DNA of 64,000 bases from contig JAWLHY010000005.1 of assembly GCA_041690135.1 (NCBI GenBank), positions 192,001-256,000 on the forward strand, written 5' to 3'. The notes below the pieces were generated by a model that ran no database searches, was not told where the DNA came from, and worked only from the letters and a program-made list of their open reading frames with translations. This DNA is from Armatimonadota bacterium. GTDB taxonomy: Bacteria; Armatimonadota; SYMT01. This document shows, piece by piece, positions 18,414 to 48,217 of this stretch. The first letter of the stretch is position 1. Every line of letters begins with the position of its first letter. Position numbers and translations under genes: made by a program.

Positions 18414-18458
18414 CAATGACAATGGCTGTCCTGTTCACCAGGACAGCCATTGTCATTG
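18414..18458. repeat. Perfect 20-bp inverted repeat (possible bidirectional terminator)
   Basis: CAATGACAATGGCTGTCCTG-TTCAC-CAGGACAGCCATTGTCATTG between convergent genes. Confidence 0.8.
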
Positions 18459-36101: not shown

Positions 36102-36747
36102 TTATTCGGGAAGCCAATCTGGCTTAGGTTGATGACTGGAGTCGAGTTCGCTGGCATCGTAGAGGGCTTCGCCGTCGCGGATGACGGAGTTGCTTTGTTA
36201 GGGAATCATCTCCAGGAGCAGTCGGAGGATGGTGGTGGCTAACCGGACGCGGTGCCTGGTGGTCTCCGCGCCGAGGATGCGGCGGCCACGCCAGTACCAG
36301 TCGCGCGTTTCCCGGGCGGAGCCCAGCGCCTACTCGTAGAATCGAGCCCGATCGCGCCCGGTTCCGCGCAGGGCGGTTCAGTTTTCGTGGAAGCTGGGCT
36401 CTGCCGCCCTCCAGGGCTCGTTCTGTGGGCGCTCTGGATCCGGGGGTTCGCACACCCGGCTAATTCCCGGTCGCCCCTCCGGGGCTGCGAAGTGGCATTC
36501 GCCGAAAACTGAACCGCCCTGCGGTTCCGCGGGAGTAACCTTCCGAAATGTTGGCGTGGATGGAACCGGCCGCGCGGTAGAGCTGGTCTGCCACTCGCGG
36601 AGTTCGCCGGTCGCCCATCAGAAGGGTGACATCTTCCCAGGCGAGGTCTCCCAGGTAGAGCGCGTACCGATAGGCGGCCACCTTCCAAACGGAATCCGCC
36701 GTAATCTCGGCGGGCACCGTGGACAGCCACTCCTGGTAGCTCATCAT
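36102..36747 (-). pseudogene. Four-helix-bundle (23S rRNA IVP-like) protein, disrupted
   Basis: ..DQLYRAAGSIHANISEGYSRGT [MITE] GRDRARFYE*ALGSARETRDWY..; internal TAG at 36330-36332 and TAA at 36198-36200. Confidence 0.85.
36369..36521. mobile_element. 153-bp MITE with 19-bp TIRs and 10-bp target-site duplication
   Basis: TIR CAGGGCGGTTCAGTTTTCG / CGAAAACTGAACCGCCCTG; CGGTTCCGCG at 36359-36368 and 36522-36531. Confidence 0.9.
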
Positions 36748-40340: not shown

Positions 40341-40430
40341 CTCTGTCGCCCCTCCAGGGCTCTTTCGGACTGGGCGCCCAGGACCGGGGGTTTACACCCC
40401 CGGCTATTCTCTTATCGCCCCTCCGGGGCT
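40341..40430. repeat. REP-like element (CGCCCCTCCRGGGCT family), full copy
   Basis: Two CGCCCCTCCRGGGCT motifs around CCGGGGGTTTACACCCCCGG hairpin. Confidence 0.8.
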
Positions 40431-45176: not shown

Positions 45177-46178
45177 ATGCGGTTCCCTACTCATATCACA
45201 ACGGACATGATCCAGTATCAGATGCGCATGGCCCGCGAGGGTCGCACGCGCTACCCCATGGTGCTGATGCTGGAGCCGCTCTACACCTGCAACCTGGCCT
45301 GCATCGGGTGCACGGTCGAGCGCCACACGGGCAAGCTGAAGGACCGGGTCTCGGTCGAGAAATGCCTGCAAGCGGCGGATGAGAGCGGCGCGCCGATCGT
45401 GTCCATCTGCGGTGGCGAGCCGACTGTTTACCCGGAGATCAAGCAGCTGATCGAAGGGATCATCGAGCGGAAGCGCCACATCTACCTGTGCACCAACGCC
45501 CTGATGCTCGATACGAAGATCTTCGGGGTGGTCGCGCCGCACAAGCGCCTTTCGATCAACGTCCACCTCGACGGTCTCCGCAAGACGCACGACTACGTCT
45601 GCGACCGGGAAGGCGTCTTCGACAAGGCGATCGAGATGATCAAGAAGGGCAAGCAGCTCGGCTACCACATGGTGACCAACACCACGGTGTTCAAAGAAAC
45701 GGACATCGACGAGGTGGAGAAGCTTTGCGAACTGCTGACCGGCATCGGCATCGACGGGATGCTCATCTCGCCCGGCTACGAATACGAGACGGTGCAGCGC
45801 GACATCTTCCTGGAGCGCCAGGAGACGGAAGAGAAGTTCCGGCGGGTGCTGCAGCTCAGCAAGAAGTACCGCCTGCAGTCCAGCCCCGTTTTCCTGGAGT
45901 TTGCCGCCGGCATGCGCGAGCTCCCCTGCTCCCCCTGGAGCACGGTCACCTTCACCCCCATGGGCTGGAAAGGCCCCTGCTACCTCATCGCCGGCAAGTA
46001 CTACCCCGAATGGGCCGAGTTCTGGAACGACGTGAACTGGGAGTACTGGGAGAGCCGTAAGGACGTCCGCTGCCGCAACTGCAAGATGCACAGCGGCTTC
46101 GAAGCCTCCGCCGTCCGCGCCGCCAATAAGAACCCGAAGGACCTGGTTCAACTGGCGATGTGGAACATGTTCGGATAA
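45177..46178 (+). CDS. hpnH: Adenosylhopane synthase, radical SAM
   Basis: VLMLEPLYTCNLACIGC, LCTN, C.NC.MHSGFE; follows shc. Confidence 0.93.
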   Translation: MRFPTHITTDMIQYQMRMAREGRTRYPMVLMLEPLYTCNLACIGCTVERHTGKLKDRVSVEKCLQAADESGAPIVSICGGEPTVYPEIKQLIEGIIERKRHIYLCTNALMLDTKIFGVVAPHKRLSINVHLDGLRKTHDYVCDREGVFDKAIEMIKKGKQLGYHMVTNTTVFKETDIDEVEKLCELLTGIGIDGMLISPGYEYETVQRDIFLERQETEEKFRRVLQLSKKYRLQSSPVFLEFAAGMRELPCSPWSTVTFTPMGWKGPCYLIAGKYYPEWAEFWNDVNWEYWESRKDVRCRNCKMHSGFEASAVRAANKNPKDLVQLAMWNMFG

Positions 46179-46226
46179 CCGCTCCTCCGTCTCGTCTTGA
46201 CCGCGGAGATGCAGATGGGAAAGGCC

Positions 46227-46482
46227 CGAACCGGATTCACCGCAGAGACGCAGAGGACGCTGAGCCGGCGCAGAGGGGGAAGAGAGGAAAGTCGCTTTCG
46301 GGCAGGGGATTTGCTGAATCGCCAAGGTCGGGATGCAAAGGGTATCTGACGATTAGAGGTTGGAGGAATATCCACCCCAAACGGATAGCCGGGGTAACCG
46401 AAGTTGTTGCGGGGCTTCGCTGGAACCCAGTTTCTCCCTTCTCTCTGCGTTACCTCAGCGTCCTCTGCGGCTCTGCGGTTAA
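46227..46482. repeat. ~250-bp palindrome-ended unit, copy 1
   Basis: ACCGCAGAGACGCAGAGGACGCTGAG ... CTCAGCGTCCTCTGCGGCTCTGCGGT inverted arms. Confidence 0.85.
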
Positions 46483-46507
46483 ACTGGTTCAGATACAGGA
46501 GGTGGAG

Positions 46508-46894
46508 ATGCGGACAAATGAGATCACGGAGGCGGTGATTGCCGCCGCGATTGAGGTGCATCGGACGCTGGGTCCGGGTCTTCTGGAGTCCGCATATCTT
46601 GTGTGTATGCGTCGGGAGTTGCAACTGCGTGGGGTGCCGTTCGAGCACGAGAAGCTGCTGCCAGTGACGTACAAGGGCGTGGACCTGGACTGCGGTTACC
46701 GCCTGGACCTGCTGGTAGCCGGCAAAGTGGTGGTCGAGCTGAAGTCGGTGGAAGCGCTGGACCCGGTTCACGAAGCACAGTTACTCACCTACTTGAAGCT
46801 CGGCGGTTGGAAGGTTGGACTGCTGATCAACTTCAATGTCCCCCGGCTGAAAGACGGCATCAAGCGGCGCGTCCTCGACTGGCGCGAGGATTAA
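46508..46894 (+). CDS. GxxExxY protein (PD-(D/E)xK nuclease family)
   Basis: VHRTLGPGLLESAY, YRLDLLV, VELKS, AQLLTYLK, GLLINF; GGAGG RBS. Confidence 0.95.
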   Translation: MRTNEITEAVIAAAIEVHRTLGPGLLESAYLVCMRRELQLRGVPFEHEKLLPVTYKGVDLDCGYRLDLLVAGKVVVELKSVEALDPVHEAQLLTYLKLGGWKVGLLINFNVPRLKDGIKRRVLDWRED

Positions 46895-46909
46895 GCGGCC
46901 TGGGAACAT

Positions 46910-47157
46910 CCGAATCGGATTCACCGCGGAGACGCAGAGCACGCTGAGCCGGCGCAGAGAGGGAAGAGGGGGAATTGGCCTATGGGCAGTAGGCTTGCAG
47001 CGAGATCTGGATGCAGAAGTGCACCCTAACTGGGGTTGAGGCGACATCATTCCCCGAAGGTAACTCGGGTTGCTTGAGGTTTGCGTAAGGTGCCGCACTA
47101 ACCCATTCTTTCATTCCTCTCTGCGTTACCTCAGCGTGCTCTGCGTCTCTGCGGTTA
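46910..47157. repeat. ~250-bp palindrome-ended unit, copy 2
   Basis: ACCGCGGAGACGCAGAGCACGCTGAG ... CTCAGCGTGCTCTGCGTCTCTGCGGT; direct repeat of copy 1. Confidence 0.85.
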
Positions 47158-47218
47158 GATGGTTCGGTTCGGTTCGGGTCCGCTGCGTCTCTGCGGTTAG
47201 GTGGTTCCGGTAATTCGA

Positions 47219-48217
47219 ATGGCAGTATTGGTTACAGGTGGGTCCGGATTCGTGGGGAGCCGGGTGGTGCGGAAGCTTCTCCAGCGGGGAGAAGACGTGC
47301 GCTGCCTGGTACGGAAGACCAGCCCGCGGGCCAACCTGGAGGGCCTGGGGGTGGCCCTGGTGACCGGCGACCTGCAGGATCCTGCTTCGCTGCGGGAAGC
47401 GGTGCGGGGGGTGTCGGTCGTTTATCACGTGGCCGCGGACTATCGCCTCTGGAGCAAGGACCCGCAGGAGCTGTACCGCAGCAACGTGGACGGTACGCGG
47501 AACCTGCTGGAGGCGGCGACGCAGGCCGGCTGCGAGCGGATCGTCTACTGCAGCTCGGTGGGGGCGCTGGGAATTCCGAAGGACGGCACGCCGGGCAGCG
47601 AGACCACGCCGGTGAAGCTCGAGGACATGGTAGGGCATTACAAGCGCTCCAAGTTCCTGGCCGAGCAGGAGGCGCTGCAGGCCGCGGGGCGTGGGGTGCC
47701 GGTGGTGATCGTTAACCCGAGCACGCCGGTGGGGCCGAACGACATCAAGCCGACGGAGACGGGGCGGATTATCACCCGGTTTCTGAACGGGGAGATGCCC
47801 GCTTATCTGGACACCGGTTTGAACTTGGTGGACGTGGACGACGTGGCCGAGGGCCACCTGCTGGCGGCGGAGAAGGGCCGGGTCGGCGAGAAGTACATCC
47901 TGGGCAACCGGAACATGACCCTGGCGGAGATCCTCCAGTGCCTGGCGGCTCTGACCGGAAAGCCCGCTCCCCGTGCTAGAATGCCGTATGGGTTCGTTCT
48001 GGGGGTCGCCCAGATCAACGAGTTTTTTGTGGGAACGCTTCTGAAGCGCGAGCCCGGCATCCCGGTGGAAGGGGTGCGGATGGCGCGGAAGAAGATGTTC
48101 TTCGATCCGAGCAAAGCGATCCGGGAACTGGGCCTGCCCCAAACTCCGGTTGAAGAGGCACTGGACCGGGCGATCCGCTGGTTCACGGACCACGGCTACG
48201 TCAAGGGCACGGCCTGA
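47219..48217 (+). CDS. hpnA: Hopanoid-associated sugar epimerase
   Basis: VTGGSGFVG, HVAADYRLW, YKRSK, DIKPTETG. Confidence 0.92.
   Translation: MAVLVTGGSGFVGSRVVRKLLQRGEDVRCLVRKTSPRANLEGLGVALVTGDLQDPASLREAVRGVSVVYHVAADYRLWSKDPQELYRSNVDGTRNLLEAATQAGCERIVYCSSVGALGIPKDGTPGSETTPVKLEDMVGHYKRSKFLAEQEALQAAGRGVPVVIVNPSTPVGPNDIKPTETGRIITRFLNGEMPAYLDTGLNLVDVDDVAEGHLLAAEKGRVGEKYILGNRNMTLAEILQCLAALTGKPAPRARMPYGFVLGVAQINEFFVGTLLKREPGIPVEGVRMARKKMFFDPSKAIRELGLPQTPVEEALDRAIRWFTDHGYVKGTA

Follow-up and report, generated by a model that had tools for sequence, protein, structure and literature searches.

A GxxExxY nuclease gene between palindromic hairpins in a hopanoid operon, apparently one of a cross-phylum family of passenger cassettes

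Two described systems come closest to the element reported here, a block at positions 46200-47197 of a 64 kb window (the whole stretch analyzed, 64,000 nucleotides (nt) of an Armatimonadota bacterium, GenBank assembly GCA_041690135.1, contig JAWLHY010000005.1, positions 192,001 to 256,000, forward strand), in which a gene for a GxxExxY protein lies inside a hopanoid operon. The first is the intervening sequence (IVS) of 23S rRNA. In the accessible portions of its description, the Coxiella IVS is a 428-nt "selfish" element with a 28-bp terminal inverted-repeat stem and an open reading frame (ORF) in the loop; tandem heptamers precede the ATG, and RNase III cuts the element out (PMC4990558). The second is the REPIN-RAYT system, depicted in the portions available as inverted doublets that form extragenic hairpins, with a gene flanked by repeats (PMC3116915; further sources are PMC3337134 and bioRxiv 10.1101/2022.05.22.493013, the last of which, in its available part, calls the system lineage-specific and mostly vertically inherited). 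The function of GxxExxY/PDDEXK_3 proteins is listed as "Unknown" in the accessible part of a survey (PMC3424549), and in the searchable literature, which lacks most subscription journals, GxxExxY is mentioned in passing, and PDDEXK_3, PF13366, TIGR04256, and TIGR02436 appear with no function given.

Our best reading of the block is a selfish, palindrome-bounded cassette that is REPIN-like in its population structure and resembles a 23S rRNA IVS in its architecture. In the window, a complete hairpin copy stands on each side of the gene, and the cassette occupies the intercistronic spacer of hpnH and hpnA, in sense orientation; the block is a passenger, and it should not be annotated as part of hopanoid biosynthesis. 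It apparently represents a widespread, cross-phylum family of hairpin-bounded passenger cassettes without earlier description in the literature searched, where 15-mers of the arms, queried in both orientations, found no match. On the fuller proposal our judgment is evenly balanced: that the cassette, mobile now or formerly, belongs to a cross-phylum palindrome-bounded family, is cotranscribed with its host operon, has stems that are processed in the manner of an IVS, and owes its spread to its nuclease.

The hairpins of the window are direct copies of a unit of ~260 bp, alignable over two stretches (46226-46314 with 46910-46998, 89 nt, 83%; 46424-46481 with 47100-47157, 58 nt, 86%). Each unit has inverted arms, 83% complementary over 48 nt in unit 1 (46228-46275 with 46443-46490) and 84% complementary over 45 nt in unit 2 (46923-46967 with 47111-47155); nhmmer recovers arm matches at 46235-46264(+) and 46444-46484(-) in the former and at 46919-46948(+) and 47120-47160(-) in the latter. 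An arm is made of tandem RCGCAGAG octamers ending in TTCACCGC; the octamer run, ACCGCAGAG-ACGCAGAG-GACGCTGAG-..GCGCAGAG, is followed by a purine-rich tail. At no more than 2 mismatches, the motif ACCGCRGAGACGCAGAG has six matches, every one inside 46200-47197, and at no more than 3 it has eight in the 64 kb, where 0.79 are expected and where none of 100 shuffles reached eight. Both units fold into long hairpins (-135.7 kcal/mol, z -6.8, for unit 1; -139.1 kcal/mol, z -7.7, for unit 2), and in neither case did any of 200 shuffles fold as well. A compensatory G/C to C/G double change distinguishes the two stems, unit 1 having GCAGAGGACGCTGAG and unit 2 GCAGAGCACGCTGAG, each in the 5' arm and in the reverse complement of the 3' arm, and an odd CCGG/GTAA internal loop is retained in both.

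The interiors of the units, X and Y, are diverged homologues of each other, identical in 79 of 136 columns (58%; score 10, compared to -15 +/- 4.9 for shuffles, none of 1000 reaching 10), whereas the arms are identical between units at 60/67 and 57/68 positions (84-90%). X and Y show no complementarity to each other (score -23). Decayed gene copies were considered as the origin of X and Y, an idea that has no support, since neither interior matched any of the 123 arm loci listed below and tblastn detected no GxxExxY similarity in them. The two hairpin copies and the gene are nested inside an older arm pair, half-sites a and a', which pair with each other when the whole block (1036 nt as folded) is folded; the arms at 46239-46258 and 47178-47197 are 95% complementary over 20 nt. 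As alternative folds, the block can form either two local hairpins or nested long-range stems that enclose the gene. The initial annotation had placed a GxxExxY gene between hpnH and hpnA, flanked by direct copies of a unit with inverted arms, and had noted a compensatory change in the arms, interiors that are alignable and more diverged than the arms, and outer half-sites forming an inverted pair around the block; the TIGR and Pfam assignments and the repeat comparison bear out this anatomy in every part.

A scan for the arm as a 17-mer, with one genome per species, returned at least 123 loci, representing over 10 phyla and some of them in finished genomes; 80 came with flanks of 2 kb and 43 with 300 bases. 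The loci listed belong to the Cyanobacteria, Chloroflexota, Acidobacteriota, Verrucomicrobiota, Planctomycetota, Desulfobacterota, Proteobacteria, Bacteroidota, Gemmatimonadota, Armatimonadota, and Firmicutes, and common to them are the arms only. A downstream inverted partner (no more than 4 mismatches in 17) is present in 68 of the 123 listed loci, with loops mostly of 18-165 nt, and six have an inverted partner just upstream; the 49 with no partner at 4 mismatches or fewer likely include some chance matches. Features outside the search pattern recur in 148 arms, namely a third CGCAGAG unit (0.5-0.7 per position) and an enriched TT[C/A] lead-in, and outside the 17-mer, arms are more complementary within hairpins (0.49) than between them (0.366), the observed value being reached by none of 200 shuffles. 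Across the family, the arms consist of tandem 8-9-nt units (RCGCAGAG in the window, CACAGAG or CGCGAAG elsewhere) ending in TTCAC, and between them lies either a short loop, as in the great majority, which are gene-less hairpins, or a GxxExxY gene of ~125 amino acids (aa). Rfam 15 at its gathering score contained nothing that explains the units, in the whole window and 20 arm loci; at E <= 1, the best sub-threshold match in 46100-47300 was MIR1858 (25.9 bits versus 137).

Other arrangements of the arm were also seen. A Segetibacter sp. locus (L066, 1056-3108, overlapping L065) contains five to seven tandem direct repeats of ~370 nt, each with an arm in the same orientation and no inverted partner. 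In L001, L012, L034, and L116, hairpins of a sister type, made of different octamers (CGCCAAGG, CACGGAGG, CGCGAAGG), are nested in or lie beside CGCAGAG hairpins, which suggests a wider superfamily of octamer-armed palindromes. By eye, gene-less hairpins in L093, L098, L109, L094, and L097 end ~10-20 nt before apparent housekeeping start codons, and one in L097 is just upstream of a tRNA-like sequence.

A GxxExxY gene abuts an arm in 5 of the 123 listed loci (L020, L054, L058, L094, and L105), and in an all-against-all blastp comparison of 1171 ORFs, this was the only family beside arms in three or more of them. Pfam assignments for 109 small ORFs beside arms gave PDDEXK_3 in four loci, ABC_tran in two, and each other family once. 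The two longest hairpin loops among the listed loci (444 and 525 nt) both hold a GxxExxY gene, and the stems of these two hairpins reach to within ~10 nt of its start codon and of its stop codon.

Choosing DNA by protein similarity alone provided a gene-first sample of eight plasmid or chromid loci, four of which have bracketing arms of the same style (25-32 nt, 86-100% complementary). These are found in Bacteroides (L124; TTCACCACAGAGG..., 30 nt, 90%), Gemmatirosa (L125; 32 nt, 100%), Bernardetia (L126; CACAGAG type, 28 nt, 86%), and Sphingomonas (L127; TTCACGCGAAGG..., 25 nt, 92%), and they are the four loci whose protein shares at least 44% identity with that of the window. Their bracket score was reached by none of 387 random window positions, although L125 needed a longer reach. 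The Treponema locus (L128) has an unrelated 16-nt pair only, and those of Prevotella, Fusobacteria, and Persicobacter (L129, L131, and L132) have no arms. Between loci, both arms vary in concert (CACAGAG/CTCTGTG, CGCGAAG/CTTCGCG, CGCAGAG/CTCTGCG), with the TTCAC tip retained. The Gemmatirosa locus has the layout of the window: a complete hairpin, the gene, and a second, near-identical hairpin.

The arms are also visible in the protein records. Among the 120 nearest homologues, every N-terminal overhang that reaches 10 aa (10 of 10) reads as the arm in frame (H[HR]R[DG][TA]E...; 0.1 in shuffles), and five of seven C-terminal overhangs of at least that length spell the opposite arm (LCASAV, SASSAPLR; 0.4 in shuffles), by regular expressions that were composed after examples had been viewed. 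In representatives at 50% identity, strict patterns match 8/72 N-terminal overhangs (0.6 expected) and 11/55 C-terminal overhangs (4.5 expected), and more variant spellings of the arm can be seen by eye. In the window itself, a 244-aa ORF, 46160-46894(+), runs stop-free through the whole of unit 1 into the GxxExxY gene, so gene callers could report an N-terminally extended protein spelling HRRDAEDAE.

The cassette behaves as a passenger of its hosts. The GxxExxY gene is co-oriented with its neighbors in 11 of 11 evaluable loci (the window, L058, L020, L054, L124-L129, and L131; chance 0.5^11), and the host contexts are unrelated pairs of housekeeping genes: hpnH and hpnA, fabD and fabG, radA and an FAD protein, ade and a manC-like gene, an aminotransferase and a racemase. 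In Bacteroides, the fit is such that the arm begins 1 nt past the radA stop and ends 5 nt ahead of the next ATG. In Sphingomonas parapaucimobilis, the cassette splits fabD from fabG; in S. paeninsulae, a gap of ~30 nt without a GxxExxY gene or arms separates the two, and this one congener pair thus provides an empty site. As the empty site has neither gene nor hairpin, the arms and the gene arrived together or in quick succession. Two of the 11 GxxExxY copies are frameshifted (L020, ~2310-2330, in a Thermodesulfobacteriota metagenome-assembled genome; L125, ~1630-1660, on Gemmatirosa plasmid 1). The Gemmatirosa hairpin has at least 40 matches on one of the two megaplasmids and at least 39 on the other (at least 79 together), and GxxExxY-like places at E <= 1e-3 number three and zero, respectively.

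The initial annotation had asked whether such arms are enriched next to GxxExxY genes across genomes, whether they covary, and whether relatives have empty hpnH-hpnA sites; as what would speak against its view, it had named a lack of any association of arms with GxxExxY genes elsewhere together with a lack of empty-site alleles. An association was found in half of the gene-first loci, in all of the long N-terminal overhangs, and in the sole family recurring beside the listed arms; the arm variants change together across loci; and an empty site exists for a sister cassette, that between fabD and fabG in Sphingomonas.

The explanation that competes best, although we consider it fairly unlikely, is that the gene is cargo only. 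Generic intergenic hairpins resembling repetitive extragenic palindromes, serving as mRNA stabilizers, insulators, or processing sites, would be spread by another factor or by the host, and GxxExxY genes would lodge there without acting. The gene-less majority of arm loci is what this explanation expects, as is the existence of divergent GxxExxY genes without arms, yet it does not readily accommodate GxxExxY being the only family to recur beside arms among the listed loci or the arms themselves, which border the gene precisely at either end in unrelated hosts and covary with the cassette. The hairpins do occupy short gaps separating ordinary genes (of 37 contexts classified, 21 are tandem, 11 convergent, and 5 divergent, the bias of convergent over divergent not being significant), but the empty Sphingomonas site contains neither gene nor hairpin. 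As for another factor, a weak partial match to the IS200-like Y1_Tnp (E 1.4e-7; L067, 1722-2348(-), uncultured Nostoc) lies ~200 nt from an arm; Y1_Tnp occurs once among the 123 listed loci, however, and the arm beside it is partnerless.

Whether the arms act as RNA or as DNA bears on the second alternative. When the stems of gene-bearing cassettes are read on the sense strand, their transition-type mismatches comprise 28 G.U and 8 A.C, every locus leaning alike; with independent pairs only, i.e., minus a window pair that re-uses arms, the counts are 23 and 6 (binomial p 0.002). No promoter-like site was found in 45900-47500, and the two terminator-like sites there are no excess over shuffles (1.3 +/- 1.3). 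In L058, the ribosome site lies inside the arm. Folding of the cassette arms in the transcript is favored by the G.U bias on the sense strand, the uniformity of the sense orientation, the absence of a promoter or terminator belonging to the cassette, and ribosome sites within arms. The alternative is a purely DNA-level, transposon-like element, in which the arms would be terminal inverted repeats or single-stranded DNA (ssDNA) hairpins of the kind found in IS200/IS605 elements and REPINs, the nuclease would recognize them, and RNA folding would be incidental. We regard this as improbable: no target-site duplication was found in the one occupied/empty pair, the protein has no known transposase fold, its nearest structures being Cas4/RecB-type exo/endonucleases, and sense orientation in 11 of 11 loci with tight intercistronic placement points to a role for transcription. 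Nonetheless, the terminal TTCAC is retained while the inner octamers vary, arms are nested (a/a' in the window, double arms in L020), gene-less copies resemble miniature inverted-repeat transposable elements (MITEs) or REPINs, and a strand-specific ssDNA hairpin would likewise give a G.T bias on one strand; such a hairpin, or mutation bias, could be the source of the G.U bias.

As modeled, the GxxExxY protein is a minimal RecB/Cas4-type PD-(D/E)xK nuclease with its motifs intact, and the fold says no more than this. It scores above the cut-offs of TIGR04256 (E 1.3e-43, 148 bits, cut-off 35) and PF13366 PDDEXK_3 (E 3.2e-42, 144 bits, cut-off 22). Residues E27, D67, E77, K79, Q91, and Y95 are intact in the window protein and do not vary across 53 aligned sequences, and we take their pattern of E, D, ExK, and QxxxY to be the RecB/Cas4 motif set. 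The AlphaFold2 model (predicted local distance difference test score 93.5) has the PD-(D/E)xK alpha/beta fold; its best Protein Data Bank (PDB) neighbor by Foldseek is Cas4 SSO0001 (E 9e-4, template modeling (TM) score 0.56), with LHK-Exo, lambda exonuclease, Cas4 Pcal_0546, and Hjc among the others, all distant, and a PDB sequence search gave no match at E <= 1. The protein thus shares with Cas4/RecB/lambda-exonuclease domains the fold and the E...D...ExK...QxxxY residues, but it is a stand-alone protein of 128 aa, with a TM score of at most 0.56 and 13-22% identity to them, and has no CRISPR (clustered regularly interspaced short palindromic repeats) or recombination context. A homodimer prediction (two copies, alignment A2), run without controls, scored 0.00 against a mark of 0.42, which speaks neither for nor against a dimer.

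The family comprises 21,337 representatives at 50% identity (E <= 1e-3). Among longer homologues, the best 120 of 653 all carry two GxxExxY domains in one ORF; in the examples read, the second domain is without the E, ExK, and QxxxY residues, and the arm can often be read in the linker (TAEARRTQRE, TAENAEVAE). This suggests that these are active-plus-dead fusions born from tandem cassettes. Fusions of an active with an inactive domain may also be taken as a sign of an evolved function and, along with the intact, strongly conserved catalytic residues and the very large family, would suit a third alternative, a domesticated host module whose nuclease serves the cell in defense, repair, or processing of operon mRNA and whose hairpins are its regulatory or processing signals, the module being no longer mobile. 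The unrelated host contexts, the presence and absence of the cassette between congeners, and the frameshifts in two of 11 copies make this very unlikely. Two further readings were rejected: a chance or assembly artefact because the same architecture is found in finished replicons, and an integron attC cassette because attC sites, at 57-141 bp, are much smaller than the units and the flanking genes are those of hopanoid biosynthesis.

The passenger-cassette reading has points against it as well. Three of the eight gene-first loci are without arms and one has a weak 16-nt pair, these being the loci of the four most divergent proteins (33-42% identity), and 118 of the 123 listed arm loci have no GxxExxY gene in the retrieved flanks. 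A target-site duplication is not evident at the single occupied/empty pair, that of Sphingomonas, where the flanks extend the palindrome. GxxExxY proteins are 71-77% identical across phyla, but HpnH is likewise 69-72% identical, so this is no evidence by itself for horizontal transfer. With regard to folding, the sense-strand bias comes from a small number of loci, with the window itself contributing half of the counts, and it could also stem from mutation bias linked to transcription or from selection for a ribosome site rich in purines. In gene-less hairpins between tandem genes, with the transcript inferred, G.U and A.C mismatches number 21 and 17, which is not significant, nor was an earlier strand-asymmetry count on gene-less hairpins from a noisy alignment (23 versus 16).

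Among described architectures, the ORF-bearing 23S rRNA IVS, which the initial annotation had not considered, is the nearest. As far as the available descriptions go, the IVSs of, e.g., Coxiella and Leptospira are similar to the cassettes in being ~430-470 nt in size, with a long terminal stem (28 bp in Coxiella, 25-48 bp in the cassettes) and an ORF of ~120 aa; in having, directly before the ATG, short repeats in tandem and a ribosome site rich in purines; and in lying inside a host transcript, being described as selfish, and showing ORF decay in some copies. However, an IVS is inserted in a helix of 23S rRNA and its cargo is the S23p four-helix bundle, whereas the cassettes occupy intercistronic spacers of mRNA operons and carry a PD-(D/E)xK nuclease. 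No rRNA or other Rfam family was detected in the block region or in 20 arm loci. Because location and cargo differ, the block is not a member of the IVS family. Moreover, the window gene is between two hairpins instead of inside one, and excision by RNase III, demonstrated for the IVS in the accessible part of its description, would apply to the cassettes by analogy.

The resemblance to RAYT/REPIN systems, but with a PD-(D/E)xK protein, that the initial annotation had seen holds in part. Judging from the accessible descriptions, both systems have inverted doublets in the form of hairpins in extragenic space (68 of the 123 listed loci here, and the window folds), with hairpins proposed to form in ssDNA or mRNA. 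As in REPIN-RAYT systems, the gene is flanked by repeats in the window and in four of eight gene-first loci; on the two Gemmatirosa megaplasmids, the one case counted, hairpins far outnumber it (at least 79 versus 3). In contrast, the cassette arms are tandem octamers with a sequence common to several phyla, and the GxxExxY protein, which matches PF13366 only, is no Y1/HUH tyrosine transposase; for want of such a transposase, this is not a RAYT system.

A third comparison is to the Correia elements of Neisseria, which are MITEs, small, palindrome-ended, and intergenic, and whose cotranscribed hairpins have been reported as RNase III substrates. They resemble the cassettes in size, palindromic ends, and intergenic position, but are, to our knowledge, genus-restricted, and we know of no dedicated small nuclease gene in them.

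How the passenger cassette might work can be outlined from these comparisons. It would be transcribed together with the hopanoid operon, and in the sense transcript, its arms would fold into stems of 25-48 bp. By analogy to the ORF-bearing 23S rRNA IVSs, these stems are probably processed by RNase III, which would make an insertion into an operon tolerable and would also release the cassette's own message. We infer that the GxxExxY nuclease acts on the hairpins, cutting at or near the folded arms (as hairpin or cruciform DNA); such cutting may spread gene-bearing and gene-less copies alike, in parallel to the service that RAYTs provide to REPINs. The hairpin-gene-hairpin layout of the window and Gemmatirosa could arise if the nuclease were to cut both strands at the base of an extruded hairpin, with fill-in then duplicating the whole target hairpin on each side of the inserted gene. 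More tentatively still, and with more doubt than confidence, we propose a cross-phylum class of IVS-like, palindrome-bounded elements that colonize intercistronic operon spacers and are propagated by a minimal Cas4/RecB-type nuclease, which would make this the first REPIN-like population of hairpins to be served by an enzyme outside the HUH class.

The features of the block and the host cistrons on either side are collected in the table.

Features of the block and adjoining host cistrons in the 64 kb window
Feature	Positions	Strand	Remarks
hpnH (adenosyl-hopene transferase), upstream host cistron	45177-46178	+	TIGR03470, E 9.2e-110
Outer half-site a (ACCGCGGAGATGCAGAT)	46200-46216	+	2 mismatches to motif; 13/15 matched with a'
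Hairpin unit 1	46226-46490	+	arm A1 46228-46286, interior X ~46287-46440, arm A1' 46441-46490
Shine-Dalgarno-like GGAGG, 5 nt before GxxExxY ATG	46498-46502	+	read from sequence; putative ribosome-binding site
GxxExxY gene, 128 aa	46508-46894	+	TIGR04256, PF13366
Hairpin unit 2	46910-47165	+	arm A2 46923-46967 (shared sequence from 46910), interior Y ~46968-47110, arm A2' 47111-47155
Outer half-site a' (ACCGCAGAGACGCAGCG on minus strand)	47181-47197	-	1 mismatch to motif
hpnA, downstream host cistron	47219-48217	+	TIGR03466, E 8.1e-148, aligned from residue 1

The first half-site follows the hpnH stop by 21 nt, and the hpnA ATG follows the last half-site by the same distance. The order of the cluster is shc-hpnH-block-hpnA-ispH, then an HpnG-like gene that scores below its cut-off, and the best named homologues of both the window HpnH and the GxxExxY protein are from Armatimonadota. 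Elsewhere in the window are two strong hairpins of unrelated sequence, one with 26-nt arms, 92% complementary, and 105 nt between them (36367-36523), and one with a perfect 20-nt stem and a 5-nt loop (18414-18458). The sole Rfam family in the 64 kb is Acido-Lenti-1 RNA (RF01687), at 40384-40430(+), with 41.7 bits compared to a gathering score of 37.

If this reading is correct, the long-puzzling rRNA intervening sequences would be linked to a general family of mobile elements that are tolerated in transcripts, and the cassettes might form a bridge from REPIN-type elements to those sequences. A repeat family extending over more than 10 phyla is unusual for extragenic palindromes. The odd read-through peptides that are frequent in gene calls (HRRDAEDAE..., LCVSAV...) would be explained, and operons of core pathways, such as those for hopanoids, fatty acids, and DNA repair, can carry passenger cistrons. 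For the GxxExxY proteins, the tie to a conserved hairpin repeat provides a very large family with a testable role.

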